Part shown: one piece after another, positions 4,356-40,987 of the stretch | Position numbering within the stretch: the first letter of the stretch is position 1 | How the letters are laid out: every line of letters starts with the position of its first letter | From: a bacterium | Lineage (GTDB): Bacteria; Electryoneota; Electryoneia; Electryoneales; Electryoneaceae | Length of the DNA stretch: 64,000 bases | Direction: 5' to 3' | NCBI GenBank assembly: GCA_963675295.2 | Contig: CAXXKJ010000002.1 | Location: 3,168,001 to 3,232,000, forward strand | Program-made: the position numbers and the translations under genes | Notes under the pieces: model-generated | Database searches by the model: none | Told to the model about the DNA's origin: nothing | The model's input: only the letters and a program-made list of their open reading frames with translations

Positions 4356-6440
4356 ATGAAGATACAGTTATCAGTGTTAGCCCTAATGTTGCTCCCATTT
4401 GTGACCTTAGGCCAGATAAGCTGGGATATCCACTACATTTCGCCAGATCATGACGGAGCATCATTCGTTTCAGCGACTGATCTGGATCAAGATGGTGATA
4501 TGGATTTATTAGGTACCGCATCAACTGATAATGATCTTATCTGGTGGGAAAATGTATACGGTGATGGTAATACTTGGAATGAACGTACAATAGACTATGA
4601 TATACTATCACCTTTTTGTGCTTTAGCCACTGATCTTGATCTTGATGGTGATTTAGATATTTTAGCGGCCTCAAGTGGTGACAATAGAGTTATATTTTAT
4701 AAAAATCTAACGGGAAACGCTTTAGATTGGGAACTAAACTATATTTCAGATTCTTGGTCAGGCGCTCTCATTATAGACTTTGGAGATTTTGACCAAGATG
4801 GTGACACGGATGTGGTTGCAGCAGCAGAAGTAAATGGTTCCGGAATAAATTGGTGGGAAAACCAGAATCAAGGAACAACTTGGTTAGATAATGACCTTAC
4901 TGATAGTGCTGCAAGATCTGTACACGTTGCCGATGTTTCTGGAGATGGTGTTCCTGATATAATCGGCGGCATTAATGGAGACTTGAAAGTTTTTAAAAAC
5001 CTTAATGGAGGACAAAGTTGGTGGATTGTTGGAATTTCCGACTTTGCTCATCCTATTGACATTACCAGCGGTGACTTTGACAATGATAGTGACTTGGATT
5101 TTTGCGTTGCTGGAGGGGACGAAGTTCTGCTGTATGAAAACAGTGGTGACGGCGTAAGCTGGATAGAACATGCCATTTCCTCGAATTTTTCAGGTGCACA
5201 TAGTGTCTACGCTGTTGATGTTGACTGCGATGGTGATCTCGACTTGGTGGGTGCTGCCTCAACAGCGGGAAAAATCGTCTGGTGGGAAAACACTCAGGGA
5301 TTGAGTCTCTGGCTTGAACATACGATCTCGGATTCATTCCCTGGGGCATACAACGTTTGTGCATCAGACATTAACGGTGACGGGTTGCCCGATGTTTCAT
5401 GTGCCGGGAATGGACAATTTGTCTGGTGGGAGCAGCTTGCGCCACCTTACACAGAACTTCAGCTTGCTTCCCCGAACGGGGGTGAAGCATGGCGTCAGAA
5501 CACCGTACACGACATTCAGTGGGAATCTAGCTCGGACCAAGATGTGGTAATCGAGCTTCTGCTTGGCCCAACAGTCGAACGCGTCATCTCCGGCGGTACG
5601 GACAACGACGGTGTGTTTGAGTGGACGATCCCGGATGACGCGACGCCGGGCGATAACTACCGTATCCGAGTCATCCTGGCAGACGGTTCGGAGCAGGACG
5701 TCAGCGACGCAGCGTTTGCAATTACAGCACTGCCAACCTTGTCTATAGAGCCCATCCTCCCCCCGATCATCATTCCCGCGTCAGGTTACGGCTTCTGGTA
5801 TTGGCTTGAGATCGGCAACCCTTCACCGTTTGAGGGCACCGGTCAGTATTGGTCTGAGGTTGTTCTACCTAGTGGCAACACATTCGGTCCGTTGTCTGTC
5901 AACCTACTCACCATCGAAGCCTTTGGCTCCTACGTCCCCGATGAACCACTAGCGCAATGGATACCGGGATACGCCCCTGCTGGTACGTACCAGTACGTGA
6001 TGCACGTGGGCATTTACCCGAACATGATAGTCGCCACAGACAGCTTCGAGTTCGAAAAGCTCGCCGGTTCGAGTGTGGCCTCCCTGCCGGAGTCTGCATG
6101 GAAGGTTGAAGACTGGCAGAATTCCGCATGGGAACAGGCAAGCGCGGCGGTCACAGGCACGGAGTCCCTCCCAACTGCTTTCAGCGTCTCCCCTGCGTAC
6201 CCGAATCCCTTCAACGCAAGTACCTCGCTCACGGTGTCGCTACCCGAACCGGCAGAACTGACGGTTACCGTCTATGACGTGCTCGGGCGGGAAGTGGCTA
6301 CTCTGGCACATTGTCAACACTCCGCCGGGGAACACCGTCTGACGTTCGGCGCCTCGAATCTTGCCAGCGGTTTATACTTCATCCGTGCTACCGTACCCGG
6401 ACATCTCGACCAGGTGCAGAAGGTGATGCTGGTTAGGTGA
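4356..6440 (+). CDS. Secreted FG-GAP/VCBS repeat protein with Ig-like domains and T9SS-type CTD
   Basis: Signal peptide; repeated DxDxDGDxD...WWEN units; SPNGGE domain; AYPNPFN...QKVMLVR. Confidence 0.9.
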   Translation: MKIQLSVLALMLLPFVTLGQISWDIHYISPDHDGASFVSATDLDQDGDMDLLGTASTDNDLIWWENVYGDGNTWNERTIDYDILSPFCALATDLDLDGDLDILAASSGDNRVIFYKNLTGNALDWELNYISDSWSGALIIDFGDFDQDGDTDVVAAAEVNGSGINWWENQNQGTTWLDNDLTDSAARSVHVADVSGDGVPDIIGGINGDLKVFKNLNGGQSWWIVGISDFAHPIDITSGDFDNDSDLDFCVAGGDEVLLYENSGDGVSWIEHAISSNFSGAHSVYAVDVDCDGDLDLVGAASTAGKIVWWENTQGLSLWLEHTISDSFPGAYNVCASDINGDGLPDVSCAGNGQFVWWEQLAPPYTELQLASPNGGEAWRQNTVHDIQWESSSDQDVVIELLLGPTVERVISGGTDNDGVFEWTIPDDATPGDNYRIRVILADGSEQDVSDAAFAITALPTLSIEPILPPIIIPASGYGFWYWLEIGNPSPFEGTGQYWSEVVLPSGNTFGPLSVNLLTIEAFGSYVPDEPLAQWIPGYAPAGTYQYVMHVGIYPNMIVATDSFEFEKLAGSSVASLPESAWKVEDWQNSAWEQASAAVTGTESLPTAFSVSPAYPNPFNASTSLTVSLPEPAELTVTVYDVLGREVATLAHCQHSAGEHRLTFGASNLASGLYFIRATVPGHLDQVQKVMLVR

Positions 6441-6445
6441 TCTTG

Positions 6446-6581
6446 TGGGGCACTCGTGGGGCAGTGTCCCCAAGAATTCCCCGTAAATCTCAATAACAAC
6501 AGGCAGGAAAGAACCGGCTATCTATCAATTATTCCTACTGTTACCGCTTGTGATTTGTTGTGTATTTTGCACTGGATTGGA
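6446..6581 (+). repeat. Conserved att arm, copy 1
   Basis: TGGGGCAC/TGGGGCAG 11 bp apart, then TGTCCCCAAGAA..CCCCGTAAAT..AATAACAA..GGCAGGA..GGCTATCT..CAATTATTCCTA. Homologous to 27584 and 40851. Confidence 0.9.
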
Positions 6582-6623
6582 CTGGGGGTCAGGGGGTCGC
6601 TGGTTCAAATCCAGTCGCTCCGA
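6580..6623 (+). tRNA. 3' half only of tRNA-Pro(GGG) (attR fragment, not a functional gene)
   Basis: Loop CTGGGGG, TCAGG, GGGTC, T-arm GCTGG-TTCAAAT-CCAGT, acceptor strand CGCTCCG-A. No D-arm or 5' acceptor strand upstream. Confidence 0.9.
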
Positions 6624-6634
6624 CACTGGAACTA

Positions 6635-6665
6635 AAGGGGTTAGGTTCTGCCTGATCCTTTTTTC
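6635..6665 (+). terminator. Terminator after tRNA-Pro fragment
   Basis: AAGGGGTTAGG-ttctg-CCTGATCCTT followed by a T-run. Confidence 0.6.
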
Positions 6666-6774
6666 TATATCCCATCGAACACTTGTGATAAACATCACTG
6701 AGCCCCTTGAGGAGAGTAACCCAACGTGATGTGTTTCCGCCGTACCTTATTTTCGTGCCCGTTCCGGGGGAGGT

Positions 6775-9039
6775 ATGAGCGGTACAACATACCGTGCGCA
6801 GGCCCGTCGTCATACGTGGCGAATTGTCCCCCACCTTGCCTGTGCGCTGATCCTGCCAGCCTGCGTCGTCTTTGCCACGAACGTGAGTACGGCGGACTCT
6901 ATCCGTATCGGCGTGCTCGCGCCATACGGCAAAACGGTTTGCGTCAACCAGTGGCAGGCGACCGCGGAATGTCTGGACGCATCCATCCCTGGTACATCCT
7001 TCGAGATTGTTCCCCTCAACTACGATGAAGCTGTGGATCCGGCAATTTTGCCCGACCTTTCCTTCATGATCGTCAATCCCGCGATGTATGTGCTGCTGGA
7101 AAGGAAACACGGCGCGTCACGTATCGCCACACGCAAGACCAATGTCGCCGGGGCAGCGGTAACCACGTTCGGCGGGGTGCTACTCTGCCGGTCTGGTGAA
7201 CACGCGGTCACACTTCCCCGCGACCTCGCCGGCAAACGCATCGCGGCAGTGCATCAGGACGCCCTCGGTGGTTGGCTTGCGGTTTGGCGCGACCTGCTCG
7301 CGATGGGATTCGACCCGTTGAAGGACGCCCGCGAGGTACAGTGGCTGCAGACCAACGACGCCGTGCTCGCGGCGGTCGCCGATGGATCGGCGGACTTTGG
7401 CATTGTGCGCACCGGTGCGTTGGAACAGATGCAGGCGGCGGGGTCGTTCGATCCGGCGACGGTCACCGTGCTGCTGCTCGATCCGGCGGTCGGGGATCCA
7501 TCCGGCTTCCCGCTGTACCATTCGACGCGGTTGTACCCGGAGTGGCCGATGGTGCGGCTGGCGCACACCGATCTGCGCCTCGCGGAACAGGTCAGCGCGG
7601 CGTTGCTGCAGCTGCGTCCCGGCAGTCCAGCTTCACAGGCGGCTGGAATCGCCGGCTGGACCATCCCGTTAAACTACGAGGACGTGAATCAGGCGCTGCG
7701 TGAAACGCATACCGCACCGTATAACCACGAAAGCCGGATCACCGTCGCGGAGGTCATTCAGGAATACGGAACGATCCTGCTGCTGATTGTTGCGCTCCTG
7801 CTGGGCAGTGTCGTTGCGATCAGCGTGATCGTGGTCCTGAATGGCCGGTTGCAAAAGACCATCCTCCGCCTGAAATCCGAGAAGAAGGTTCGGGAACGTA
7901 CCGAAACTGCCCTCTCGTCCAGCGAAACCCGATTCCAGAGCATTGTCGAAAATGCCCATGAGGGCATCGCGGTGCTTGCCGGCGAACGTATCCTGCTGCA
8001 CAACGATGCGTTCCGTAACCTGTTCGGTGGGGAAGATGGTCCGGCCACTTTCCCCGACAACCTCATCGACCTGATCCATGAAGACGACCGCGAGGCGGTT
8101 CAAGCTGTGTTGGACCGGGCCTTTGATGGCCAGCTTCCCGAAACACCGTTGTATTTCCGCACGGATTCCGGCACTGAGATCGAGATGAGCTTGACCGGGA
8201 TGGAATATGATACCGGCTGGGCAGTACTCGGGATAGCCCGTGACATTACAGAAGCACGCGAGGTGGAACGTCGGCGTCAGGAAGCGATCCAGTTGACGCA
8301 GGACAGCGCCCGGCTGGCGTCAGTGGGAGTACTGTCGGCGGGGATCACGCACGAGATCAACCAGCCGTTGAGCGCGATCCAACTCAGCAGCGACAGCGTC
8401 GCGTTGTGGCGGGATCAGAATCCGGACACGTTGCCACCGTTCGTGTCGGAACTGGTTGACGAAATCTCGCAGGGCGCGGCGCGGATTGGTTCGATCATCG
8501 AACACATGCGCTCGTACTGGGTCCATTCCGCCCCGGCGGTAACGGATATCGTCGACCTAAACGAGGCCGTCAAACGTGCGCTGACCCTGCTCACGATGCA
8601 GATTCGCAATCACGAGATCCAGCTTGAATTGAATCTGTCCGGGACGTCATTGCCAGTTTCAGGCGAACAGGTGCAACTGGAGCAGATCTTCAGCAACCTC
8701 GTCGCCAACGCCATCCACGCACTGGATGAAGCCAACACCGATGACAAACGAATCCGTGTCTTCTCCGGACGTGACAGGGGGCGCTGCTTCGTCGAGATCA
8801 CCGATACCGGTCCCGGCTTGCCGACCACCGATATGGACCAGTTGTTTGATCCGTTCTATTCCACCCGTCAGCCGGGCAAGGGAATGGGATTAGGACTGGC
8901 AATTGTGAAGATGTTCGTTGAGCGTCACCGAGGTACGATTCAGGCGGTGCAGAACAAGGGTGGCGGGTCAACGTTCCGTGTCACCATTCCGCAGGCAACC
9001 GACAGCGAGAAAAGCGATGCGCATACTGTACGTGGATGA
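6775..9039 (+). CDS. Sensor histidine kinase with periplasmic PhnD-like binding domain and PAS (TtrS/ThsS-like)
   Basis: N-terminal substrate-binding domain with STRLYPEWP; TM; PAS; HEINQPL; DTGPG; GMGLGL. Confidence 0.9.
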   Translation: MSGTTYRAQARRHTWRIVPHLACALILPACVVFATNVSTADSIRIGVLAPYGKTVCVNQWQATAECLDASIPGTSFEIVPLNYDEAVDPAILPDLSFMIVNPAMYVLLERKHGASRIATRKTNVAGAAVTTFGGVLLCRSGEHAVTLPRDLAGKRIAAVHQDALGGWLAVWRDLLAMGFDPLKDAREVQWLQTNDAVLAAVADGSADFGIVRTGALEQMQAAGSFDPATVTVLLLDPAVGDPSGFPLYHSTRLYPEWPMVRLAHTDLRLAEQVSAALLQLRPGSPASQAAGIAGWTIPLNYEDVNQALRETHTAPYNHESRITVAEVIQEYGTILLLIVALLLGSVVAISVIVVLNGRLQKTILRLKSEKKVRERTETALSSSETRFQSIVENAHEGIAVLAGERILLHNDAFRNLFGGEDGPATFPDNLIDLIHEDDREAVQAVLDRAFDGQLPETPLYFRTDSGTEIEMSLTGMEYDTGWAVLGIARDITEAREVERRRQEAIQLTQDSARLASVGVLSAGITHEINQPLSAIQLSSDSVALWRDQNPDTLPPFVSELVDEISQGAARIGSIIEHMRSYWVHSAPAVTDIVDLNEAVKRALTLLTMQIRNHEIQLELNLSGTSLPVSGEQVQLEQIFSNLVANAIHALDEANTDDKRIRVFSGRDRGRCFVEITDTGPGLPTTDMDQLFDPFYSTRQPGKGMGLGLAIVKMFVERHRGTIQAVQNKGGGSTFRVTIPQATDSEKSDAHTVRG

Positions 9040-10435
9040 TGACGAACAGGCACGGCGGGTAGTGCGCAAGTCAATCGCCGGATTACTTGGCTATGATGTG
9101 GTCGAATGTGCCACCGTCGACAGGGCGCTCGACTTGCACCGCTCGGATCCATTCAAGCTGATCCTCAGCGACATCCGCATGCCCGGCAAAAGCGGCCTCG
9201 ATCTGCTCGCCGAACTACGCCACAATGCGGACATTCCGCCCGCCGACGTCATCTTCTACACGGGTTTCGCCGACCTCGATACCGCTGTCGCTGCACTGCG
9301 GCTAGGCGCATTCGACCTGATCAGCAAGACCGCCCGCGCACGTGACCTGCTGGACGTGATCCACCGTTGGGAGCAGGAATCCACGACACGCGAGCAGTCA
9401 GCTGACACCTCGCCGTCGTCACAGGTTGAAGAAACTGAGCCTGTCACCTCCGAGGTCTATTTCCCGGACGACACGTGGCTCGGGCACTACTCGGAAGAGA
9501 TGCACGAGATCGTCACCCTCGCGTTACGTCTGCACGAGGACGACCAGGCGCCGGTCCTGATCGAGGGCGAAACCGGCACCGGCAAGGAACAGGTGGCGAA
9601 GCTGGTGCATCATGGCCGCAACGGTAGCGGTAAACCGTTCGTCATTCTTAACTGTTCCGCGTTGACCCCGACGCTCTATGAGAGCGAACTGTTCGGCCAT
9701 GAGGCCGGCGCATTCACCGGCGCACGCAAGCATGGCGCGCCCGGCAAGCTCGCCGCGGCAGACGGTGGCACGTTGTTTCTCGACGAAATCGGCGAGATGC
9801 CGCTGGACTTGCAGCCTAAGCTGCTTCAATTCCTTCAATCACGGCAGTATTACCCCGTCGGCGGAGTGGAACCGAAACAGGTCCGTGTTCGCATCATCGC
9901 GGCAACCAACCGCAGCCTCGCGGAGATGGTCGAAGCAGGCAGTTTCCGTCGTGACCTGTTCTACCGGCTGAACATGATGCGGATGCAACTCCCGCCTTTG
10001 CGTGACATGTCCGAATCGATCGGCCCGTTGGCTCAGCGGATGCTGGTCGAAGCCGCGCGTGAGAAGCACCGCCGATTTAAAAGCATTCACCCGGATGCCA
10101 TCACCCGGCTGCAGACCTACCCCTGGCCCGGGAATATCCGTGAGCTGCGTAACGTAATCGAGCGCGCCATCCTGCTCAATGACGCGCCCGAGTTGCTCCC
10201 GCAACACCTGCCAATCCTGGCGGCGGATCTCGATGAACGACGTGACGTCGTATCCCTCGGCGACTTGTCGTTCACGCTGCCTCTGGATTCCCTGCCGCTT
10301 GAGACGCTCGAACGGGAGGTGATCGTCGCCGCACTCAACCGGTTTGATGGCAACCAGAGCCGCGCGGCGGACTACCTCGGCCTCTCCCGCTACGCATTGA
10401 AACGCCGGTTGGAGAAGTACGGGCTCAACGGCTGA
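9017..10435 (+). CDS. Sigma54-dependent response regulator (REC-AAA+-Fis HTH)
   Basis: [42 protein letters not shown]-terminal HTH. Confidence 0.95.
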
Positions 10436-10463
10436 TCACTCTCACCCCGATGTAGTTCCAGCC

Positions 10464-10612
10464 TGGGCGAAATCACCCATCTCCCTGTTTCGCCCCTCGC
10501 AGATCCGCCCGGCGCGGGCGTTTTCGCGCGCCAACGCCGCCTCAGACGAAGCCTCTAAGCTAATGATTACCAGTATGTTGCCCGTCATCCGCACGACTGG
10601 CATGCGCTTTGA
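10464..10612 (+). promoter_or_regulatory. Putative sigma54 promoter and enhancer upstream of cysC
   Basis: TGGCATG-cgct-TTGA at 10598-10612 (GG-N10-GA variant). Near-palindrome TGGGCGAAATCACCCA at 10464-10479. Adjacent to a bEBP gene. Confidence 0.55.
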
Positions 10613-10677
10613 CTATGTGTGTGGAAACGAACTGTCACACGTACCGCCTCGCCGGTACTCGCAGCAGGGAGAATCAT

Positions 10678-11316
10678 ATGATCGAACGCAAGGCGACCAA
10701 TATCACGCGGCACGAAGGGCATGTCAGCCGCGCCATCCGTGAGACATTGCTCGGCCAGAAGGGCTGCACGATCTGGCTGACCGGGCTACCATCCTCGGGT
10801 AAAAGCACGACAGCCTTCACGCTGGAACATGAGCTGGTGCAGCAGGGGCATCTCGCGTACGTGCTGGACGGCGACAACATCCGCTTCGGCCTCAATCGAA
10901 ACCTAGGTTTTTCGCCCAATGACCGCGCGGAAAACATCAGACGGATCGGTGAGGTCGCGCTGCTGTTTGCGGATACCGGCGTCATCGCAATCACCAGCTT
11001 CATCTCCCCGTACCGTGAAGATCGTGACCTCGTGCGGGAACGCCACAATGATCTCGGCATTCCGTTCATCGAGGTCTTCGTCGACACCCCGCTGCGTGTC
11101 TGCGAGGAACGGGATCCCAAAGGTCTGTTCAAGAAGGCTCGCGAGGGTGTGATCAAGGATTTCACCGGAATCGACGCGCCGTACGAAAAGCCGGTTGTGC
11201 CCGACTTGGTGCTGAAAACCGACCACATGACGCCCGAGGAGACAGCGTTCCAGATCGTCGATTTCCTGCAGTCCCAGGCGCTGCTTCCGGGAGCTGTTGA
11301 TCGGGCGCTGGCCTGA
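10678..11316 (+). CDS. cysC: Adenylyl-sulfate kinase
   Basis: IWLTGLPSSGKST, LDGDNIR, DRAENIRR, ISPY, RDPKGL, FTGIDAPYE. Confidence 0.96.
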   Translation: MIERKATNITRHEGHVSRAIRETLLGQKGCTIWLTGLPSSGKSTTAFTLEHELVQQGHLAYVLDGDNIRFGLNRNLGFSPNDRAENIRRIGEVALLFADTGVIAITSFISPYREDRDLVRERHNDLGIPFIEVFVDTPLRVCEERDPKGLFKKAREGVIKDFTGIDAPYEKPVVPDLVLKTDHMTPEETAFQIVDFLQSQALLPGAVDRALA

Positions 11317-11322
11317 GGCGGA

Positions 11323-13895: not shown

Positions 13896-13947
13896 ACGGC
13901 GGCCGGAAGCTGCCGCAAAACGCATCAACCCACAACATGGGAAGGGG

Positions 13948-27764: not shown

Positions 27765-27771
27765 GAAATAG

Positions 27772-32415: not shown

Positions 32416-32467
32416 GTGGAACCCATCGGCAGCATTTCGCCGGTGGATTTCATTCGTGGAGGACTCC

Positions 32468-35257
32468 ATGAAACGGCTTTTCATTTCCATGATCCTCGTC
32501 CTGGTCGCCGGGCTGGCATTCGGGGCTCCCACCGCGCGGATCATGGGCACGGTTACCGACGCTGAAACGGACGAAACGATCATCGGCGCAAACGTGGTGC
32601 TGGTCGGGATGTCACGCGGTTCCGCAACCGACCTTGATGGCCACTTCCTCATCCTCGCCCTGGAAAAAGGGCTGTACACCGTCCAGGTTTCCGCGATCGG
32701 ATATGAGACATACACCCTCGAAGGCGTGCAGCTGGACGCCGGCCAGCGCCTCACGCTGGACATCGAGCTGACCGGATCCGCGGTCAAGCTGGAAACGGTG
32801 ACTGTCACCGGCCAGTCGGAAACCGGGTCGGAAGAACGTGAACTGGAAGAGCGGCTCGAAGACGTCACCATCACCGACGCCATTTCGGCTGAAACAATCA
32901 GCCGCCTGCCGGACCCGGACGTGGCGAATGTCGTCCGGCGCGCCACGGGAGTCTCAACGTTGGGCGGTGACCCGGTCATTCGCGGATTGGGCGCGCGCTA
33001 TTCCAAGGTCACGCTGAACTCAGCGCAGGTCTCCGGCACCGAACCGAACCGCAGCGCGGTATCGTTGAACCTCTTCCCCGCCAGCGTGATGAGCCAGGTG
33101 AACGTCAGCAAGTCCTACACCCCGGACCAGTGGGGCGAATTTGGCGGCGGTGCGGTCAACATGAATACGTGGGATATACCAGCAGGAAACCTCAGTATCA
33201 GTGCATCCACGTCGACCAGTTATCGTGTTGGAACAACTGGGAAGAAGTTTTACAGCTACGCCGGCGGTGCCTGGGACTGGCTGGCGTGGGATGACGGCGC
33301 GCGCGAGATGCCGTCGGATGTTGCCAGCGGCGGCCAGCTGGCCCTTGGTGGACAATTCAGCGAGCGCGGCTACAGCGAAGACGACATGATCCGTCTCGGC
33401 CGTCTCTTCCCCAACAATTGGGGCACCTATTCCTACAATGCACCGGTAAACCAGGGCTACAACCTTTCGATTTCTGACCGCTTGGAGTTGGCTGGACGTG
33501 ACCTCGACCTGCTCGCCAGTCTGCTGTACGACCGTTCCAGTACCGCGATTGAAAAAGACTTGATCGTACTCAAGGGCGGTGTCGGTGAAGCAGCCGATAC
33601 GATGCACAACTACACGTTCAACGAGTACATGCAGAATGTATCCGCAGGCGGATTGATCAACCTGCGGTACCAGTTCAGCCCACTGCACCGGTTTGCGATC
33701 AACACACTGTACAACCGCGACATGGAAGATGAGACGCGTTTCTATGAAGGCGTCAACCGTGACCGTGGCGCGGATATCCGTGACATCCGCCTCCGCTATG
33801 TTCAGCAGGTGACCTGGACCAGCCAGTTCTCCGGGTCGCACGCCATCCCAAATCTGCTGAGCAGTGTATTGGACTGGCACATGACCTATTCCCGTGGTGA
33901 ACGCTACGAACCCGACACCCGTGAAGTGCAGTTTGAATCCGAACCACTTGGTCTGGAAGATCCGGTTTTCATCTGGGCGGACGAGGAGCAGAGCGGCTCG
34001 CGTTTCTACAACGACCTTTATGACGACACGTACTCCGGCGGCGTGGACTGGGAACTGCATCCCATTGTGGGTGTGACGCGGAATGAAGTCGATCTTCAGA
34101 TCAAGAGCGGAGTTGCGTTTGTCGAACGTAAACGGGAAAGCGATACCCGCTTCTTCGAATACAAGCGTGACGCCGGGTTCAATACGTTGTTCATGCAGCA
34201 GGATCCGATGCTGCTGTTCGCTCCGAATAACGTCAGCCCGGACATCTTCCTGGTCGAAGAAACCACGCGTCCTACCGACAATTACAAAGCCGACATGAGC
34301 ATTCAGGCGGCCTACGTGTTGTTCAAGGGCCGTGTATTGCCGAAGTTGCGCGGCAGTTTCGGTGCCCGTGTCGAACATGCGAAGCAGAACGTCAACACCT
34401 TCGCCCTGTTCAATCCAGACGAAGAACCGGCGGTCGCCGACCTCGAGAACACCGACGTGATGCCGGCGTTGACACTGATCTACGAACCGATGGACCGCAC
34501 GAATTTCCGTCTCGCTGCCAGCCGTACCGTGTCACGCCCGGACTTCCGTGAATTGAGCCCCTTCGAGTTCACTGATATTCTCGGCGGACGCGCGGTGCAG
34601 GGCAATCCCGACCTTCAACGCGCCCTGATCGACAACTATGACCTGCGTTTCGAAAAGGTCTACGGTGTCTCAAACCTGTTCGCCGTCAGCGCCTTCTACA
34701 AGCGGTTCCATCAGCCGATTGAAACGGTCATCCGCATTACCGCACAGATCAGCGAATCCTTTGAGAATGCGGATGGCGCAACCAGTTACGGCCTCGAGAT
34801 GGAGTGGCGGCAGAACCTGGGCATGTTGACGGATCTGCTCGAGCCGTTTTCATTGTCGACCAACCTCTCCCTGCTTCATTCGGAGATAGAGCTGTCCGAC
34901 GAAGCCAAACTGGCGACAACCTCGGATTCCCGTCCACTGGAAGGCCAGTCGCCGTTCCTCTTTAACGTCAACCTGAGCTACATGCACCCGAGCTGGGGCA
35001 CCAATGCTGACCTGTTCCTCAACGGCTTCGGCAAACGCATTGTCGCGGTGGGGTACGAACCGATGGCGGACGAATACGAACTGCCGCACTGGGAGCTGGA
35101 CTTCACCATGCGGCAACCGTTGACCCGTCACCTGTCACTCAAGTTCGCGGCGAAGAACCTGCTCGACCCGGACTATCAGCGTGAACAGGGCGACATCATC
35201 GTCGAACGCTATTCGATGGGCCGCAGCTTCTCAATCGGCGCCAGCTGGATGCAATAA
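32468..35257 (+). CDS. TonB-dependent receptor
   Basis: CarboxypepD_reg-like N-terminus (GTVTDAETDETIIGANV); plug IRGLGARY; SRTVSRPDFRELSPF; GNPDL; C-terminal beta-strand. Confidence 0.93.
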   Translation: MKRLFISMILVLVAGLAFGAPTARIMGTVTDAETDETIIGANVVLVGMSRGSATDLDGHFLILALEKGLYTVQVSAIGYETYTLEGVQLDAGQRLTLDIELTGSAVKLETVTVTGQSETGSEERELEERLEDVTITDAISAETISRLPDPDVANVVRRATGVSTLGGDPVIRGLGARYSKVTLNSAQVSGTEPNRSAVSLNLFPASVMSQVNVSKSYTPDQWGEFGGGAVNMNTWDIPAGNLSISASTSTSYRVGTTGKKFYSYAGGAWDWLAWDDGAREMPSDVASGGQLALGGQFSERGYSEDDMIRLGRLFPNNWGTYSYNAPVNQGYNLSISDRLELAGRDLDLLASLLYDRSSTAIEKDLIVLKGGVGEAADTMHNYTFNEYMQNVSAGGLINLRYQFSPLHRFAINTLYNRDMEDETRFYEGVNRDRGADIRDIRLRYVQQVTWTSQFSGSHAIPNLLSSVLDWHMTYSRGERYEPDTREVQFESEPLGLEDPVFIWADEEQSGSRFYNDLYDDTYSGGVDWELHPIVGVTRNEVDLQIKSGVAFVERKRESDTRFFEYKRDAGFNTLFMQQDPMLLFAPNNVSPDIFLVEETTRPTDNYKADMSIQAAYVLFKGRVLPKLRGSFGARVEHAKQNVNTFALFNPDEEPAVADLENTDVMPALTLIYEPMDRTNFRLAASRTVSRPDFRELSPFEFTDILGGRAVQGNPDLQRALIDNYDLRFEKVYGVSNLFAVSAFYKRFHQPIETVIRITAQISESFENADGATSYGLEMEWRQNLGMLTDLLEPFSLSTNLSLLHSEIELSDEAKLATTSDSRPLEGQSPFLFNVNLSYMHPSWGTNADLFLNGFGKRIVAVGYEPMADEYELPHWELDFTMRQPLTRHLSLKFAAKNLLDPDYQREQGDIIVERYSMGRSFSIGASWMQ

Positions 35258-35358
35258 TCCAGAGCTATATGCCCGTGTCAGAAAACTCGCGGACGCGGAC
35301 CCGAAAACCAAGGATAGAAGAAACTTCAGATACAACGCGGTACGGAGGAGGGAGTACG

Positions 35359-36471
35359 ATGAAGCACAGTATGATTGCTGTTTGCATGCTGCTGATCTCA
35401 GGCGCGGGATTCGCCCAGATGCAGCATTTTAATCCGGTTGACCCGACCGGCCAGGTGTACAACGTGTCGGCGCGCGGCATCTACATCGAAGGTCTCGCGC
35501 TGCAGCTCGGGGACGAGGTCGGCATCTTTGACGGCGACTTGTGTGTTGGCGCAAAAGTGGTCGAAAAGCCGGTCAATGTCAGCGCCGGTCAGTTCCTCAC
35601 CATCCCGGCTCAGGAAGGTGATGAGAACCTGCAGCTTCCGGGGTTCACGCCGGGCCACGATATCAACGTGATTGTGTGGCAGATGCACAGCGACACCGAG
35701 ATTAACATCACCGAAGAGTGGGCGCTGGGCGATGGCACGTTCGGCGCAGGCGTCGCCGCGATCATGCACCCGATCTTTCACGGTGACCAGTCGATCCAGG
35801 GCCCGGAACACTTTGTCCCGGTTGAACCGGCGGACCCGCAGGACATTCAAACTCCGGCGTATGGTGTGGTCGTAGACGCTGCCACGGTTGACAGTGAACC
35901 GCTGGAACCGGGCGACGAAATCGCAATCTATGACGGTGATTTGTGCGTTGGCGCGGCAAAGCTGCCTTATGAGCTGGGCGGCGATTTGTCGCTGATGTTC
36001 ATGACCTGGGGTGAATACAACAGCGCGGACGGGTACACGGTCGGTAACGACTTGCTGGTGCGAGTCTGGGATGCGTCTGCGTCACTGGAGATTGAGGGGA
36101 CACCAGATTTCTACCAGGGATCGACTTTTGAATCCGACCCTTTTGCGATCATCTCGTCGTTGATGTCCTCGGATGTCGATGACAGCCCTGCTGCCATCCT
36201 GCCGGGCAAATACGAGATCGTGAACGCCTACCCGAACCCGTTCAACGCCGCACTGACGATTCAGGTCGCGTTGCCCGCGCCGGGCGAGGTGTCGCTGGCG
36301 GTGTGGGATGTGCTCGGCCGTCAGGTTGCGACTGTTACAGCGGGATCGTTGTCCGCCGGTGAACACGGCATCACGTGGAACGCGACCGGGACACCCTCCG
36401 GCGTCTATTTCGTGCGCGCGTACTTCGGTGGCGAGGTGATGGGCATGCGCAAGGTCACGCTCTTGAAGTAA
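35359..36471 (+). CDS. Secreted protein with two HFxPV domains and T9SS-type CTD
   Basis: Signal peptide; two GDE(V/I)xx(F/Y)DGDLCVG units; AYPNPFN...RKVTLLK. Confidence 0.85.
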   Translation: MKHSMIAVCMLLISGAGFAQMQHFNPVDPTGQVYNVSARGIYIEGLALQLGDEVGIFDGDLCVGAKVVEKPVNVSAGQFLTIPAQEGDENLQLPGFTPGHDINVIVWQMHSDTEINITEEWALGDGTFGAGVAAIMHPIFHGDQSIQGPEHFVPVEPADPQDIQTPAYGVVVDAATVDSEPLEPGDEIAIYDGDLCVGAAKLPYELGGDLSLMFMTWGEYNSADGYTVGNDLLVRVWDASASLEIEGTPDFYQGSTFESDPFAIISSLMSSDVDDSPAAILPGKYEIVNAYPNPFNAALTIQVALPAPGEVSLAVWDVLGRQVATVTAGSLSAGEHGITWNATGTPSGVYFVRAYFGGEVMGMRKVTLLK

Positions 36472-36583
36472 CGGATAGTAAAAGACAGGAACAGATAGGA
36501 ACAGATTGCAAAAGACGTAGAAGATGCGTCTGCCCGGACCGTAAAGAGCTGGTCGGGTCCGAGTATCCAGACAGTATGCAGCG

Positions 36584-36618
36584 GGGACACTTTGGGGACA
36601 AAGTGTCCCAGGTTTTTC
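36584..36618 (+). terminator. Hairpin/terminator resembling the att-arm motif
   Basis: GGGACACTTTG-GGGA-CAAAGTGTCCC followed by aggttttt. Confidence 0.55.
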
Positions 36619-36862
36619 TCCCGCAGCCTGGTATCGTATCTGCGTTCGGATCGGGCACCTGTATTGTCTTCGTACCAGATCGCACTCCTCCCTGAGAGCC
36701 TCTCCAATTCCGGCAAATAAGAAACTCCCGAAAAACCAATACGCGCCAAACACTACGATGCGATCCTCTCGCCGTATTCATGGCGCTGCAGTACACGACA
36801 CGTTCTCCGGGAGGCCGGAAAACGTAACTACAGAGTTTACCTGACTTTCAGGAGGATTTTCC

Positions 36863-37963
36863 ATGTTCCGTAGGACCACTCTGTCCGTTCTGCTGCTCGC
36901 GCTTTTCGCCATCGTTCCGCTGGCGAACGCTCAGCACTTTACCCCTGTCGATCCGACGGGTCTTCCGTACGCGATCGCGATTGAGTACGGCAAGATTGGC
37001 AACACCGCATTGAAGACGGGTGACGAAGTCGCCGCGTTTGATGGTGACCTGTGTGTCGGTTCCGCGATCATTGATGGTCGTGTGACCCCGGAAACCGCTC
37101 TTGGCTTCACCGCTTGGGAAGAAGACACGAATCAGGGCCTGATCGGCTTCACCGATGGCAACTCGATTGAAATCCGCGTCTGGCGTCAGGGTCAGGGCGA
37201 GTTCGTTGCGACCTCGAACTGGGCGACCGGCGGCAATTTCGGCGACGGTTTCGGCTCGGTGGCGTCCAGCGTCGCCGGTGGCACTCCGCGTCCGGTCGTT
37301 GTTGACATTTATCCGAACGGCACCCCGGTGATCCCGTTCGGTGGTGGCTACTTCTACTATCACGTGATGATGCACAACCAGTCGCAGCTCAGCGGCCAGG
37401 TAAATGTCACGATTCAGTATGAACTCCCGACCGGCCAGGCGTTCACCGCGGCGGCGGCGAACATCAACCTCAACGGCGGCCAGACGATCAATGTCGACCG
37501 TGAGCAGTATGTCTCTCAAAACTTCCCGACCGGATACTTCTGGTACGTGATCACTGTGCGCTACGGTCAGCTGACCCTGTGCTCGGATGTCATCGCCGTC
37601 GAGAAGCTCGGTAGTGTCGTGGATGGCGCGATGCCGGAATTCGTCTATGACGAAGCCGTCTCTGAGATCGCTGACATGGGCGCGACCGTGAACCTGCCGG
37701 ATGAGTTCGGCCTTGGCAATGCCTACCCGAACCCGTTCAACCCGACCACCACGCTGAACCTCGCCCTGCCGATGGCTGGCCAGGTCAAAGTGGCTGTGTT
37801 CAACACGCTCGGCCGCCAGGTTGCCATCCTGAATAACGGCGTCCTCGACGCCGGCAACCACACCCTGAGCTTTGATGGGTCCCATCTGGCCAGTGGCGTG
37901 TACTTCATCCAGGCGACCGCCGGTGCGGAAACCGCGATCCAGAAGGTCACCCTGATGAAGTAA
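36863..37963 (+). CDS. Secreted protein with HFxPV domain, pre-CTD Ig-like domain and CTD
   Basis: QHFTPVDPTG...FDGDLCVG; IPFGGGYFYY; AYPNPFN...QKVTLMK. Confidence 0.85.
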   Translation: MFRRTTLSVLLLALFAIVPLANAQHFTPVDPTGLPYAIAIEYGKIGNTALKTGDEVAAFDGDLCVGSAIIDGRVTPETALGFTAWEEDTNQGLIGFTDGNSIEIRVWRQGQGEFVATSNWATGGNFGDGFGSVASSVAGGTPRPVVVDIYPNGTPVIPFGGGYFYYHVMMHNQSQLSGQVNVTIQYELPTGQAFTAAAANINLNGGQTINVDREQYVSQNFPTGYFWYVITVRYGQLTLCSDVIAVEKLGSVVDGAMPEFVYDEAVSEIADMGATVNLPDEFGLGNAYPNPFNPTTTLNLALPMAGQVKVAVFNTLGRQVAILNNGVLDAGNHTLSFDGSHLASGVYFIQATAGAETAIQKVTLMK

Positions 37964-38008
37964 GCGGTACCCGACATTCAGCCTGATTTGTACAGGCTAT
38001 GACGTACC

Positions 38009-38041
38009 GGAAAGGCCCCAGTTCTCCCTGGGGTTTTTCCT
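38009..38041 (+). terminator. Probable terminator
   Basis: GGAAAGGCCCCAG-ttctcc-CTGGGGTTTTTCC. Confidence 0.55.
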
Positions 38042-38394
38042 CTCTCAGGCAGTGGGCTATAGGCTGAGGGCGATGGGCTGTGGGCCAGGAGCGGCTGGTA
38101 TTCGTGGCCCGGCTTGGTGTTGGTTTTTCAAGTCGCATGTCAAGGCGTGGTATCGAACCAGCAACCAGTTCCATGTTACACAAATGCGTGGGTACCATTC
38201 AGATTTGATGTGCCTGTTAACTCCATTATAAACAGTGTTATAGATTATGAATTTGCGCCTCTTGCGGGTGATGTTCAGCTCCCCAAACACTGCCTGAACC
38301 ATCCCCCGACACCTCCCTCATACGGCAGGTCAACTTTCCCGCACACGTCCAATTGACGATTTCCCGAAACACCTTGACTTCATGGAGGAGTACA

Positions 38395-40845
38395 ATGCGT
38401 ACCCTGATGTCCGTGCTTTTTACCGTGCTGATGCTCGCCGGTGCGGCGAATGCTCAGTTTACCCTGACTCTGCTGCACAACAATGACGGCGAGTCCCAGT
38501 TGATCAATCTCGGTGGCGACCAGGAAGACTTCGGTGGCGTCGCTCACTTCGCCAGCCTCGCGGATTCCTGCAAGGCCTGGGCGGATGCGAACACCGATGG
38601 TTACCTGATGGTCACCTCCGGCGACAACTTCCTCCCCGGCCCGGAGTGGAACGCCAGCCTGAACGATGGCATCTACTATGACGCCGTCGCGATCGACCTG
38701 CTCGGCTACAACACCCTCTGCCTCGGCAACCATGATTTCGACGCCGGCCCGGATGTGTTGGCCGAGTTCATCAGTGAAGCCAATGTCTACACCTCGCCGA
38801 CCTGGCTGAGCTGCAACCTCGACTTCAGCAATGAGCCGAACCTGCAGGCGCACGTAGACAACGGCCGCATCGCCAGCAGCAAGATGGCTGATGTGAACGG
38901 CACGATGGTTGGTATCGTTGGCGCGACCACCCCGAACCTCGACTTCATCTCCAGCCCTGGCGATGTCATCATCAACGATGACGTGGTCGCCGCGGTGCAG
39001 GCCGAAATCGACGACCTCAGCAACAACGGCGCGGACATCATCATCCTGATCTCCCACCTGCAGGGCATCGTCGAAGACCTCGCGATCATTCCGGAACTCA
39101 GCGGCCTCGACGTCGCTGTGGCCGGCGGTGGTGACGAGCTGCTCGCCAACGATGGCGACCTGCTGGTCCCGGGCGACGAAGATGAAGTGTATGGTGCATA
39201 CCCGTTGACCGCGACGAACCTCGATGGCGACACTGTTCCGGTGGTCACCACCAGCGGCAACTACGCCTACCTCGGCCAGATCGTGCTCAACTTCGACATC
39301 AACGGCGACCTCATTGACTGGGATACGGACCACAGCGGCCCGAAGCGCGTTGCGAACGAAAACTACCCGGACGGTGTCCCGGCGAACACGACGATGCAGA
39401 CGATGGTCGTTGACCCGGTCGCGGCCTACGTTGCGAACCTCGGCGCGAACATCATCGCCAGCTCGGATGTCGATCTTGACGGTATCCGCAACCACGTGCG
39501 CGGATTTGAGACCAACCAGGGCAATTTGATCGCAGACGCGATGCTCGCAATCGCGATGGATCGTTACGCTGATTTCGGTGCCCCGATGCCGACGGTCGCG
39601 TTCCAGAACGGTGGCGGTATCCGTAACGACGCCATCATTTCCGCTGGCGACATTTCCGAGCTGACCACATTTGACGTGCTGCCGTTCGGCAACATCCTTT
39701 CGATCGTGGAAGATGTCGATCCGATGCAGTTCAAGGCCGTGATGGAAAATCACGTCGCCGCGATCGGCAACGGCGCGGGCACCGGCCGTTTCGGCCAGGT
39801 TTCCGGCTATCGTTTCGAATATGATGCGACCTTCCAGGCGCAGGAATACGACACCGACGGCAACATCACCATCCCGGGCGAACGCATCCGCAAAGCGTGG
39901 CTGGCTGACGGTACCGTGTTGGTCGAAGACGGCGTGGTCAACCTGGACGCCCCGCACCAGAACATCGTCGTTGGTGACTTCATCGCCGGCGGTGGGGACG
40001 AGTACCCGTTCCAGGGCTTGAACTTCACCCGCCTCGGTATTTCCGACCAGCAGACGCTGGCGACCTACCTGTCCGACATGGGTACGGTTGAAGCACGCGA
40101 CTACCCGCGTGGTGGCGAGATGCGCGTCGTCCGTCTCGACCAGCCGCTGGGTCTCGAAGCCAGCCCGATGTTCGGCGTCTTCCCATCCGTCCCGGCGGAA
40201 GGGGGTTACTTCCCGTTGACCGCGACGATCAGTAACCTGACCATGGATGAGATGATGTACGACGCGTGGGTCGATGTCTGGGGTCCGAACGGCCTGCAGG
40301 GCAACATCTACAGTGGCGTCAAAATGTACATGGACGTGGCCATTTTCGGCAACGCCATGGACACATATAACGCTTTGCAGTTTGTCCCGGGCTACGCTCC
40401 GGAAGGCACCTACCTTTACATCGTCAACATCGGTCACTACCCGAATGAAGTGATCGCGCGCGACTGGTTCGGCTTCGAGAAGGAAGGCGTTGATCCGTCC
40501 GCGATCGGTGACTGGATGATCAAGCTGAACAACGGTGAGGTCGAAGCTGCGGATGCCGCGGCTGCGACTGAGCTGCCGACCGAGTTCGCCGTTGGCCAGG
40601 CCTACCCGAATCCGTTCAACCCGACCACGACGTTGAGTGTCAGCCTGCCGTCAGCAGCGAAGCTGAATGTCACCGTGTTCAACGTGATGGGCCAGCAGGT
40701 TGCGGAAATCGCCAACGGTTCGTACAACGCCGGCATGCACAACCTCGTGTTCGACGCGAACGGCATGGCCAGCGGCGTCTATTTCGTTCGCACCCGGGTT
40801 CCGGGTCATCTGAACCAGCTGCAGAAGGTGATGTTGGTGAGGTAA
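38395..40845 (+). CDS. Secreted 5'-nucleotidase/UshA-family metallophosphoesterase with CTD
   Basis: LHNNDGES, GDNF, GNHDFD, ISHL, ETNQGNLIAD, NGGGIR, LPFGN; AYPNPFN...QKVMLVR. Confidence 0.92.
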   Translation: MRTLMSVLFTVLMLAGAANAQFTLTLLHNNDGESQLINLGGDQEDFGGVAHFASLADSCKAWADANTDGYLMVTSGDNFLPGPEWNASLNDGIYYDAVAIDLLGYNTLCLGNHDFDAGPDVLAEFISEANVYTSPTWLSCNLDFSNEPNLQAHVDNGRIASSKMADVNGTMVGIVGATTPNLDFISSPGDVIINDDVVAAVQAEIDDLSNNGADIIILISHLQGIVEDLAIIPELSGLDVAVAGGGDELLANDGDLLVPGDEDEVYGAYPLTATNLDGDTVPVVTTSGNYAYLGQIVLNFDINGDLIDWDTDHSGPKRVANENYPDGVPANTTMQTMVVDPVAAYVANLGANIIASSDVDLDGIRNHVRGFETNQGNLIADAMLAIAMDRYADFGAPMPTVAFQNGGGIRNDAIISAGDISELTTFDVLPFGNILSIVEDVDPMQFKAVMENHVAAIGNGAGTGRFGQVSGYRFEYDATFQAQEYDTDGNITIPGERIRKAWLADGTVLVEDGVVNLDAPHQNIVVGDFIAGGGDEYPFQGLNFTRLGISDQQTLATYLSDMGTVEARDYPRGGEMRVVRLDQPLGLEASPMFGVFPSVPAEGGYFPLTATISNLTMDEMMYDAWVDVWGPNGLQGNIYSGVKMYMDVAIFGNAMDTYNALQFVPGYAPEGTYLYIVNIGHYPNEVIARDWFGFEKEGVDPSAIGDWMIKLNNGEVEAADAAAATELPTEFAVGQAYPNPFNPTTTLSVSLPSAAKLNVTVFNVMGQQVAEIANGSYNAGMHNLVFDANGMASGVYFVRTRVPGHLNQLQKVMLVR

Positions 40846-40850
40846 TTCCA

Positions 40851-40987
40851 CGGGACACTCATTGAGGCAGTGTCCCCAAGAATTGCTCGTACCATAAAAC
40901 AACACAGAGCAGGAGAGAGTCGCCTATCTCATGAAAATACCTGCTGAAACAGTCTGCGGGCTGCTGTGATTGTTGGACTTAACAGAA
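40851..40987 (+). repeat. Conserved att arm, copy 3 (more diverged)
   Basis: GGGACACTC..GAGGCAGTGTCCCCAAGAA..GCAGGAGAG..CTATCTC..TGTGATT..ACAGAA; 137 nt to the anticodon loop. Confidence 0.8.

Follow-up and report, generated by a model that had tools for sequence, protein, structure and literature searches.

The DNA analysed here (the window) is a 64,000-nt stretch of contig C2 from an uncultured, predicted type IX-secreting bacterium. ARAGORN placed a tRNA-Arg(ACG) gene at C2:3167004-3167080, 920 nt upstream of the window. An intact tyrosine integrase gene, which runs into the window, starts ~240 nt past this tRNA and matched PF00589 (5.2e-31), Int_N (PF24624; 1.1e-9) and phrog_1 integrase (3e-73). 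It opens a segment of ~7.6 kb, termed E2a, that continues with a hypothetical gene, a gene for a primase or replication initiator (phrog_1829 DNA primase, 7.3e-38; Pfam NrS-1 polymerase HBD, 8.2e-11, and HTH_36), and a gene encoding an FG-GAP protein with a type IX secretion system (T9SS) C-terminal domain (CTD). E2a ends at c1, a copy of a conserved arm, X, of ~140 nt, of which an nhmmer search of the whole genome recovered five full copies (c1-c5). Two larger cassettes lie downstream: E2b, and S, which holds a CpeT-like gene, unknown genes, a gene for a TonB-dependent-receptor-like barrel, two CTD genes and a 5′-nucleotidase-CTD gene (Table 1). No integrase was found in E2b or S (no PF00589 match in 3168473-3209007), and the scanned ORFs showed no conjugation genes. 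Across the genome, nine of 11 PF00589 matches adjoin a tRNA, a tmRNA or a displaced fragment.

Table 1. Features of the locus, in window positions
Feature	Position	Strand	Evidence and remarks
Tyrosine integrase gene, 3′ part	3..473	+	whole gene C2:3167322-3168473, 383 aa
Primase / replication-initiator gene of E2a	2054..3529	+	
FG-GAP protein, Kre9-like Ig domain and T9SS CTD	4356..6440	+	Pfam; 694 aa; last gene of E2a
c1 (X = P arm)	6441..6579	+	nhmmer E 6.6e-43, alignments; opens with two-word repeat, ~11-nt period
c1 tail: displaced tRNA-Pro(GGG) 3′ part, anticodon loop onward, and terminator hairpin	6580..6665	+	
Cassette E2b	6699..27505	+	sensor kinase, sigma-54 activator, response regulators, transporter (Pfam, 4 ORFs)
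c2 (X)	27579..27718	+	nhmmer E 7.5e-43; without upstream CTD gene
c2 tail: displaced tRNA-Arg(ACG) 3′ part and its terminator	27719..27807	+	
c2b, degenerate arm copy	27808..27990	+	nhmmer E 0.41, X positions 1-108; alignment
Cassette S	28060..40845	+	Pfam; 12.8 kb; ends at c3
5′-nucleotidase protein, RbmA-like stalk and T9SS CTD	38353..40845	+	Pfam; 830 aa; last gene of S
c3 (X)	40846..40990	+	nhmmer E 1.4e-36; most diverged of the copies
c3 tail: displaced tRNA-Arg(ACG) 3′ part and ancestral host terminator	40991..41075	+	
Host (core) CTD gene	41241..43040	+	first gene behind tRNA-Arg(ACG) in sister genome

CTD genes next to the arms

An earlier, sequence-only reading of this DNA had proposed that the 3′ end of a CTD gene and the arm behind it form a fixed terminal unit of an element family. 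Its underlying observations were borne out. The FG-GAP gene stops at 6440 and the arm was placed at 6446, and the 5′-nucleotidase gene stops at 40845 with the arm at 40851, leaving a 5-nt gap in both cases. Reading of the tails confirmed that both proteins end in PGHL(D/N)Q(V/L)QKVMLVR. Their passengers are indeed unrelated: in Pfam the former has FG-GAP repeats and the latter 5_nucleotid_C, each with Por_Secre_tail (PF18962 scores of 34.4 and 35.2 bits, respectively; Pfam cut-off 27), and the two proteins align only over the C-terminal 250 aa, at 40% identity. A common pre-CTD domain had also been noted, but neither it nor this match is specific to arm-linked proteins; other CTD proteins match similarly. 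The FG-GAP protein is 41% identical over 204 aa to the product of the host gene at 41241..43040, and 45% identical over 202 aa to the non-arm CTD protein at C2:2781633-2783495. The stalk-plus-CTD module is common to arm-linked and non-arm genes.

The genome encodes ~417 CTD-bearing ORFs, about one gene in ten. The KVMLVR ending occurs in 44 of the 417, a loose version of the 14-aa tail in 30 and the strict form in six, and the PGHL...KVMLVR tail is a trait of a CTD subfamily and not specific to the arm. Islands showed no enrichment, with 18 CTD ORFs observed against 19.3 expected. Nor do the arm-linked CTDs form the single clade that the fixed-unit proposal called for: the CTD at c5, a third CTD-linked copy of X, located on contig C1 with the CTD stop likewise 5 nt upstream, clusters with that at c1 and with two island CTDs that do not adjoin arms, and the c3 CTD stays outside. 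The remaining copies follow other genes. As had been pointed out for the copy at 27584 (c2), no CTD gene precedes it; the upstream gene encodes a response regulator and stops at 27505. Copy c4 comes after a secretin gene. A putative CTD-tail relic upstream of c4, seen by eye as a stop codon plus TTCCA with a 7-nt match to c3, was rejected as too short.

Arm anatomy and the array behind tRNA-Arg(ACG)

Each arm consists of the P arm, which opens with two repeat words, followed by a displaced tRNA 3′ part and the terminator of that tRNA. The tRNA parts behind the five full copies of X start at tRNA position 31-52 and are 89-98% identical to their sources, which are tRNA-Pro(GGG) for c1 and c4, tRNA-Arg(ACG) for c2 and c3, and tRNA-Arg(CCT) for c5. 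Within the array, the c1 tail matches positions 31-81 of tRNA-Pro(GGG) (98% over 51 nt), a tRNA that is non-cognate for this locus, and the tails of c2 and c3 match tRNA-Arg(ACG) (95% over 104 nt from tRNA position 32, and 89% over 65 nt). Immediately behind c2, the degenerate copy c2b combines a weak X match with what by eye looks like a degraded tRNA-like T-arm.

The host flank resumes at the c3 tail: the sequence 3′ of it aligns with that behind tRNA-Arg in G002, a sister genome of the same genus. In G002 the tRNA-Arg(ACG) site is empty: the orthologue of 41241..43040 (ORF L016:2349-4124; 83% identical, 485/582) lies directly behind the tRNA, and the genes on either side (67% and 85% identical) are separated by 3.5 kb, compared with 44.5 kb here. 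Therefore, the ~42 kb from the tRNA to copy 3 constitute a tandem island array, and the description of the conserved stretch as an att arm holds. The two-word design, with different words, is present in every island, and in all eight islands (8/8) a word of 10-21 nt, specific to the element, occurs both in the P arm and right behind the tRNA. Between non-cognate arms 5-9 nt are common, with the exception of the related Arg/Pro pair (13 nt). We had considered by eye that the 5′ repeat words might be a sigma-54 promoter; this was dropped when the two-word design, with its changing words, proved common to all islands.

Both integrase-less cassettes occupy other loci in G002. S matches a stretch that lies 450 nt behind tRNA-Pro(GGG), at 84.7% identity over 12.6 kb. 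The 5′-nucleotidase gene has a 91%-identical orthologue there with the same tail; the cassette ends at the identical stop codon, without an arm behind it, and the 162 nt that follow in G002 had no match in genome G000. E2b is represented by a shorter version, in four aligned pieces, between two tRNA-Arg(CCT) fragments. Its homology ends exactly at the stop codon of the response-regulator gene, after which comes a different arm, so that a gene-exact cassette border occurs without a CTD.

BLAST searches with X gave no matches in 15 genomes of the same family, and a two-block IUPAC pattern of X matched neither metagenome contigs nor genome contigs. A 20-nt pattern of X had one match among metagenome contigs, which lies inside an unrelated high-GC gene and was ruled to be due to chance. 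No excision joint or circular form was seen in the contigs of the four sequencing runs (one study) that contain the stretch, three of them placed along it; these contigs bridge c3 and the c2b-S joint, and the joints listed have sides of ≤36 nt and connect CTD paralogues. Neither an excised form nor relatives of the arm outside this genome were seen, so that the mobility of the islands and the binding of integrase to the repeat words are inferences. The same holds for the order of integration and the place of recombination.

Possible origins of the CTD-arm junction

In our judgement, the arms are probably the attR junctions of genomic islands that integrate at tRNA genes and are arrayed in tandem, and we see no evidence of a dedicated device for CTD capture. 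The two direct repeat words, with their ~11-nt period, would then be putative arm-type sites for the N-terminal domain of the integrase, and integration would have displaced the 3′ part of the tRNA from the anticodon loop onward. In the array, E2a closes at c1, E2b, with its regulators, at c2, and S, with its outer-membrane and secreted proteins, at c3, and host DNA follows. A CTD gene would touch the arm because the last cargo gene in the ArgACG/Asn-integrase island lineage is a T9SS-CTD gene, and X-family elements may have reduced the spacer that separates this gene from the first arm site to 0-5 nt. The equal spacing would mostly reflect common descent of one junction, and the different passengers ordinary modular recombination of CTD/stalk modules among the ~417 paralogues.

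The distribution of CTD genes over junctions bears on this explanation. A CTD gene stands last before three of the five X arms and both arms (2/2) of the sister integrase family, but before none of seven other junctions. Among the 12 junctions examined, five were CTD-terminal (c1, c3, c5 and two Asn-type arms), which exceeds the ~10% base rate if the junctions are taken as independent, and none of the five lies outside the ArgACG/Asn integrase pair, whose members are 61% identical. In the Asn-type family, CTD, terminator and arm make up a duplicated 637-nt block whose copies have different tRNA parts. On the unrooted tree of X, (c1,(c3,c5),(c2,c4)), the CTD-linked state is explained by one gain or loss, so that few independent events are needed. 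Thus, the proposal of a fixed unit of CTD end plus arm is partly supported: it describes the c1, c3, c5 and Asn-type junctions, and fails at c2, c4 and the other junctions.

Two arms do not follow from simple serial integration, namely c1 with its tRNA-Pro part and the inner arm of the Asn island, which carries a tRNA-Arg part. Among the scenarios for the history of the array that we considered, none fits without a hybrid-tRNA intermediate.

We considered two further readings of the contact between gene and arm. It is scarcely credible that the arm represents a small structured RNA, or else a 3′-UTR element, that ends like a tRNA and is transcribed either together with the CTD gene or following it. 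The arm does start right past the stop codon and has a 5′ hairpin, a T-arm and a terminator at its end, but the tRNA-like end copies whichever tRNA sits at the locus, and compensatory pairs are confined to the terminators, which derive from different tRNAs. An RNA gene was rejected on the RNAalifold result for the five copies (covariation term +2.25, unfavourable, with no compensatory pairs in X), and on the absence from the window of any Rfam family and of any ARAGORN call of a tRNA or tmRNA. It is also quite improbable that CTD genes met the arm independently at least twice by deletion of spacer, the equal 5-nt gap being a coincidence. In this genome roughly every tenth gene has a CTD, and in the Asn-type arms the stop is still ~210 nt, terminator included, away from the repeat words. 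Moreover, the five nucleotides themselves differ, being TCTTG and TCCTG in c1 and c5, and TTCCA in c3; the latter belongs to the arm consensus (c2, c4 and the copies behind tRNAs), so that in c3 the stop directly touches the arm, and the c3 CTD lies outside the c1/c5 clade. Against repeated juxtaposition, c3 groups with c5 as its sister on the X tree (support 0.81), the pair being nested among CTD-linked copies, the BLAST alignments of c3 with c5 and c1 are gapless across the junction, and the five CTD-terminal junctions all fall in one integrase clade. Copies c1 and c5 share 601 nt spanning the junction, at 76% identity.

The sequence-only reading had suggested a homology hook, taken here to mean that the last CTD codons, fused to the P arm, recombine with any of the hundreds of chromosomal CTD genes and thereby join that gene and its upstream DNA to the arm. 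Such a hook is possible but rather unlikely, and it is equally doubtful that secreted-protein cassettes were turned into island cargo by this route. One observation runs against common descent of the junction: the CTD genes at c3 and at c1/c5 are non-orthologous, with identity at background level upstream of the last 45 nt (82/150 and 26/48), yet they have the same 5-nt spacing, and a single origin of the junction would therefore require an exchange of genes that broke within the CTD tail, as the hook predicts. The hook also accommodates the stop of S at exactly the same codon in G002, where it is armless. In the last 18 coding nt the 5′-nucleotidase ORF matches c5 at 17 positions and its G002 orthologue at 13, and further upstream the orthologue is ahead (130/150, compared with 82/150 for c5). 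The C-terminal 328 aa are the only part common to the c1 and c5 proteins, identity between the FG-GAP protein and its tRNA-Asn-island homologue rises from ~35% to ~75% at residue ~439, the tRNA-Pro island has a CTD 3′ fragment joined to a truncated integrase gene, and two adjacent CTD genes (51254-51505 and 53327-53578) are 94% identical over 252 nt. However, segment ranking against the 416 other CTDs, together with a site-by-site comparison with G002, gave only a weak signal of a breakpoint in the tail: the GTGAGG ending occurs in six of the 44 KVMLVR tails, and GTG stands at the other informative valine in 40 of the 44. The common patch would measure at most 45 nt, and the tail motif, present in the armless orthologue, is ancestral to the 5′-nucleotidase gene. 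The gene-exact border of E2b, the lack of CTDs at c2 and c4 and the absence of CTD enrichment in islands also speak against it. There is one candidate capture event, and the arm occurred in no second genome searched. The idea of a mobile secretome-shuffling system therefore goes beyond the evidence, and tandem island integration is the reading we retain.

Comparison with known systems

Small integrative elements that combine an integrase with a primase are of the P4-satellite type. E2a is a candidate for likeness to these, being ~7.6 kb long with a tRNA-adjoining integrase, a primase or replication initiator and a single cargo gene, but it has no recognised capsid-redirecting or helper-related genes. 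Tandem accretion with integrase-less, cis-mobilizable islands has reportedly been described in work on ICESt1/ICESt3 attributed to Pavlovic in 2004 and Bellanger in 2011. The array resembles accretion of this kind in that the integrase-less E2b and S sit between att-type junctions, beside an integrase-bearing relative, and, as in accretion systems, both cassettes also occur at other att loci in the sister genome. According to the available portions of the source, tandem arrays of SXT/R391 yield hybrids via homologous recombination (PMC5812530). In contrast to ICESt1/ICESt3 and SXT/R391, the present elements have tRNA targets, lack conjugation genes among the scanned ORFs and are known from sequence alone.

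The closest parallel lies with the islands mapped by Islander, whose end-points are displaced tRNA fragments, which include 2083 of 3919 islands with anticodon-centred attP, and which form tandem arrays, as set out in the accessible parts of PMC4383910. As in the islands described in those parts, we found an intact tRNA at one end and a same-orientation displaced 3′ fragment at the other, a tRNA-adjoining tyrosine integrase, an identity block from the anticodon loop and a tandem array (PMC4383910). Displaced fragments of the same tRNA follow c2 and c3 (the fragment at c1 being Pro), the empty site is present in G002, and an integrase accompanies E2a, but not E2b or S. Relative to what the accessible parts describe, the present array differs in that the integrase is kept in only one of three segments, one internal arm bears the 3′ part of another tRNA, and elements in three different tRNAs have a conserved P arm in common (PMC4383910).

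T9SS cargo of Porphyromonas gingivalis is described, in the accessible parts of PMC5266723, as passenger plus Ig-like stalk plus CTD, with domain rearrangements. The same pattern of unrelated passengers on a common stalk and CTD, and mosaic identity among paralogues, is seen here; unlike the cargo described in those parts, the 3′ end of the module here abuts an island attachment junction (PMC5266723). In our literature search, no paper connected T9SS CTDs to att sites. Overall, the locus represents a mobile element of a well-known type, if with one habit of mild interest, and not a new system.

What had appeared to be a welded unit can now be read as a map of tandem islands that span 42 kb behind tRNA-Arg(ACG) and have exact ends. 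The locus provides a concrete case, in an uncultured and predicted type IX-secreting bacterium, of cargo cassettes that switch tRNA locus and arm between sister species, and that keep gene-exact borders as they relocate. It may be, though we think it unlikely, that the last CTD codons in the conserved right end of these islands act as a portable patch of homology which hitches a CTD gene and its upstream operon to the island, and that integrase-less cassettes such as S then move among tRNA-Pro, tRNA-Arg(ACG) and tRNA-Arg(CCT) with the help of a related integrase. The present evidence makes such a hook testable without establishing it. If true, the CTD tail would offer islands a simple route to the uptake of operons for secreted proteins in genomes with the tag on a tenth of their genes.

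Arms as attR junctions in a tandem array of tRNA islands

The ~140-nt P arm, X, occurs in five full copies in the genome (c1 to c5; nhmmer profile, E values 1e-36 to 2e-44), each followed by a tRNA 3′ part that begins in or just past the anticodon loop and by the terminator of the same tRNA. Shorter nhmmer matches, covering the first 40 nt of X, lie directly behind tRNA-Arg(ACG) and tRNA-Pro(GGG). The sequence-only reading had named this unit an att arm, and rightly so: the arms are the attR junctions of tRNA islands arrayed in tandem, a known kind of element. The Islander paper (PMC4383910) gives displaced tRNA fragments as island end-points, an anticodon-centred attP and tandem arrays as the standard picture, and the present arms resemble those islands in their displaced tRNA fragments, anticodon-region start and tandem arrangement. 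An RNA gene reading of the arm was rejected, with no Rfam family and no covariation support.

In G002, a sister genome of the same genus, the gene upstream of tRNA-Arg(ACG) (67% identical) and the YgjP-like gene (window 43183..43926; 85%) are separated by 3.5 kb, compared with 44.5 kb here. There, tRNA-Arg(ACG) and its terminator are followed directly by an ORF 83% identical to window 41241..43040, and the DNA past the tRNA aligns with that past c3. Because the G002 site is empty and these downstream sequences align, the ~42 kb from the tRNA to c3 is island DNA, made up of segments E2a, E2b and S. No excision was seen in public-run contigs, which span the c3 and c2b-S junctions (contigs only). 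One 694-aa ORF (window 24760-26844) joins a response-regulator receiver domain to a Na/sulfate-symporter/citrate-transporter membrane domain.

Features of the array and the arm copies (window positions unless a contig, C1 or C2, is named)
Feature	Position	Description
Tyrosine integrase	3′ end = ORF 3..473, behind tRNA-Arg(ACG)	383 aa; PF00589 5.2e-31, Int_N 1.1e-9, phrog_1 3e-73
Primase/replication-initiator gene	2054..3529	Next after integrase
FG-GAP-CTD ORF	4356..6440	694 aa; FG-GAP repeats, Kre9-like Ig domain, Por_Secre_tail
5′-nucleotidase-CTD ORF	38353..40845	830 aa; 5_nucleotid_C, Por_Secre_tail, sub-threshold RbmA-like FnIII match
Segment E2a	tRNA side to c1	Integrase, hypothetical gene, primase, FG-GAP-CTD gene
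Segment E2b	6699-27505, closed by c2, c2b right behind	Sensor kinase, sigma-54 activator, response regulators, transporter; no integrase
Segment S	~28060-40845, closed by c3	CpeT-like gene, TonB-dependent-receptor-like barrel, three CTD genes; no integrase
c1	X at 6441	Then tRNA-Pro(GGG) 3′ part, 98% over 51 nt
c2	X at 27579	Then tRNA-Arg(ACG) 3′ part, 95% over 104 nt
c2b	27808-27990	Degenerate sixth arm copy directly 3′ of c2, no island body in between
c3	X at 40846	Then tRNA-Arg(ACG) 3′ part, 89% over 65 nt
c4	X at C2:3709807	Then tRNA-Pro(GGG) 3′ part, 97.6% over 85 nt
c5	X at C1:154385, minus strand	Then tRNA-Arg(CCT) 3′ part, 96% over 75 nt

The window begins 920 nt past the intact tRNA-Arg(ACG). 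Nine of the 11 PF00589 matches in the genome adjoin a tRNA, the tmRNA or a displaced tRNA fragment, and BLAST of tRNA 3′ parts found displaced copies for Gln, Asn, Lys(TTT), Leu(TAG) and Lys(CTT, twice). The ArgACG and Asn integrases are 61% identical; the next closest is LysTTT (50%). The integrase of the tRNA-Pro(GGG) island (L013:940-1650, C2:3700439-3701149) is cut at about codon 216, retains its N-terminal ~200 codons with an Int_N match only, and runs in a different frame into the terminal 120 nt of a CTD ORF, with no X past that stop. ARAGORN called a second tRNA-Met (C2:2568044-2568119), the 3′ half of which copies the tRNA-Met at 2550561 while the 5′ half is unrelated; it represents a displaced attR fragment, at the end of a 17-kb island that also holds the integrase. 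A tRNA of unknown type with the four-base anticodon tttc (C2:4439111-4439194) and a tRNA-Ile(aat) (C2:720395-720476), also called by ARAGORN, may be artefacts or unusual tRNAs.

Every island carries, on the outermost part of its P arm, two direct repeat words with a period of ~11 nt, which recur just behind the tRNA and terminator and are island-specific in sequence. Cognate arms have 10-21 nt in common in 8/8 islands, compared with 5-9 nt for non-cognate pairs, the related Arg/Pro pair excepted. We read these words as putative arm-type sites that the integrase would bind. In the tRNA-Arg and tRNA-Pro islands, the first pair is followed, ahead of the integrase start codon, by a second pair in inverted orientation; in L003, as in L013, this second pair is ~100 nt upstream of the start.

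Two arms carry a non-cognate tRNA 3′ part, namely c1, with tRNA-Pro(GGG) in the tRNA-Arg(ACG) array (window 6580-6630), and the inner arm of the tRNA-Asn island, with tRNA-Arg(ACG) (C2:2783849-2783895), and both close the integrase-proximal segment of their island. tRNA-Arg(ACG) and tRNA-Pro(GGG) have a common anticodon stem, which may allow one integrase to use both sites. We constructed no history of these two tRNA parts that was free of a hybrid-tRNA intermediate.

CTD genes at the arm

The contact between the arm and genes ending in a type IX secretion (T9SS) sorting domain (CTD; PF18962) holds as originally described. The FG-GAP and 5′-nucleotidase ORFs both end in PGHL(D/N)Q(V/L)QKVMLVR and a stop, and the arm begins 5 nt further on; the copy at 27584 (c2) instead follows a response-regulator gene with its stop at 27505. 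The pre-CTD domain said to be shared by the two genes is indeed common to both, but it is a genome-wide stalk module, and the FG-GAP-CTD protein (W6440) is equally similar to several CTD proteins away from arms. Using our own HMM, we counted 417 CTD ORFs, in accord with 421 first-look PF18962 candidates (150 scored, all above cut-off). The strict 14-aa tail occurs in six of the 417, every one inside or next to islands, a loose form in 30 and a KVMLVR ending in 44.

The CTD base rate is about 1 gene in 10, taking a rough ~4,000 genes rather than a gene-caller count. The islands are not CTD-enriched, since nine mapped islands (222.8 kb) hold 18 CTD ORFs against 19.3 expected. A co-oriented CTD gene is last at 5/12 junctions (c1, c3, c5 and both tRNA-Asn-island arms), with none within 4 kb at the other seven; nor is one last at two further junctions, tRNA-Met here and tRNA-Arg(CCT) in G002. 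The stop-to-X distance is 5 nt at c1, c3 and c5; in the tRNA-Asn island, 354 nt that include a terminator separate the CTD stop from the tRNA part. CTD, terminator and arm there form a 637-nt block that occurs twice (70% identical), once closing with a part of tRNA-Arg(ACG) and once with a part of tRNA-Asn, and the two proteins are alike only over their last 239 aa.

All five CTD-positive junctions fall within one integrase pair, ArgACG/Asn. The ratio of 5/12 would look significant if the junctions were independent, but not if they represent two or three lineages. The unrooted X tree, (c1,(c3,c5)0.81,(c2,c4)0.94), groups c3 with c5 and c2 with c4, so that one gain or one loss suffices to explain the CTD state. 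The contact is thus a trait of the lineage, and very few independent events lie behind it. The "fixed terminal unit" proposed earlier is supported in part: CTD end and arm form a right end that is conserved in a single integrase lineage.

The CTD is part of a unit with the arm for c1 and c5, and not for c3. The c1 and c5 copies align over 601 nt across the junction (76%; ~470 nt of ORF plus X), their CTDs are mutual close neighbours (85% aa), and the protein match is confined to the last 328 aa; two island CTDs that are not arm-adjacent group with them (88% and 83%). For the c3 CTD, the best matches are at 67-70%, c1 and c5 are absent among the 13 other matches listed, and c3-c5 identity upstream of the last 45 nt is at background (ranks 160-233 of 416).

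Cassette relocation and the homology hook

It had been proposed that the CTD 3′ end acts as a homology hook by which the arm captures or swaps secreted-protein genes. We consider a dedicated hook an unlikely, minority reading. The single candidate event, the joining of S to X, is compatible with it. The whole of S is present in G002 (84.7% identical over 12.6 kb; 5′-nucleotidase-CTD orthologue full-length, 91%), where it begins 450 nt past tRNA-Pro(GGG) and runs to the same stop codon (L031, C74:14000-33900). Behind that stop come an ordinary terminator and then the following gene; X and a tRNA part are both absent. VPGHLNQLQKVMLVR is already the ending of the G002 gene, and therefore the tail was not supplied by the arm. 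Over the last 18 coding nt, the gene here agrees with c5 in 17/18 positions and with its orthologue in 13/18, and upstream of these the orthologue is closer (130/150 vs 82/150). This is the pattern expected from a crossover in the tail, but the signal is weak: among the KVMLVR tails, 6/44 have the GTGAGG ending and 40/44 have GTG at the other informative valine codon.

Other signs of recombination do not single out the arm. W6440 steps from ~35% to ~75% identity with its full-length tRNA-Asn-island homologue at residue ~439, and two adjacent genes, 48851..51511 and 51764..53584, have CTDs with 94% identity over 252 nt (51254-51505, 53327-53578), far above the usual 60-70%, which suggests recent gene conversion. 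Together with the integrase/CTD fusion, both fit the combinatorial way in which T9SS cargo modules are known to be assembled (PMC5266723) and the hybrids that form in tandem arrays (PMC5812530). We found no paper tying T9SS CTDs to att sites, and no relatives of X in 15 family genomes or by pattern scans of two public collections.

Also against a dedicated hook, E2b, a non-CTD cassette, behaves alike. In G002, two tRNA-Arg(CCT) fragments flank it (L032, C72:30000-49900), with 88% identity over 7.9 kb plus three shorter pieces. The G002 version is shorter, and the aligned pieces suggest that ~12 kb is absent from it. The homology stops exactly at the response-regulator gene stop, behind which G002 has a different arm. 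E2b, with its non-CTD last gene, gene-exact border and changed arm, speaks against a CTD being required. Comparison of the two genomes thus indicates that cargo cassettes keep gene-exact borders while their tRNA locus and arm differ between sister species, irrespective of a terminal CTD.
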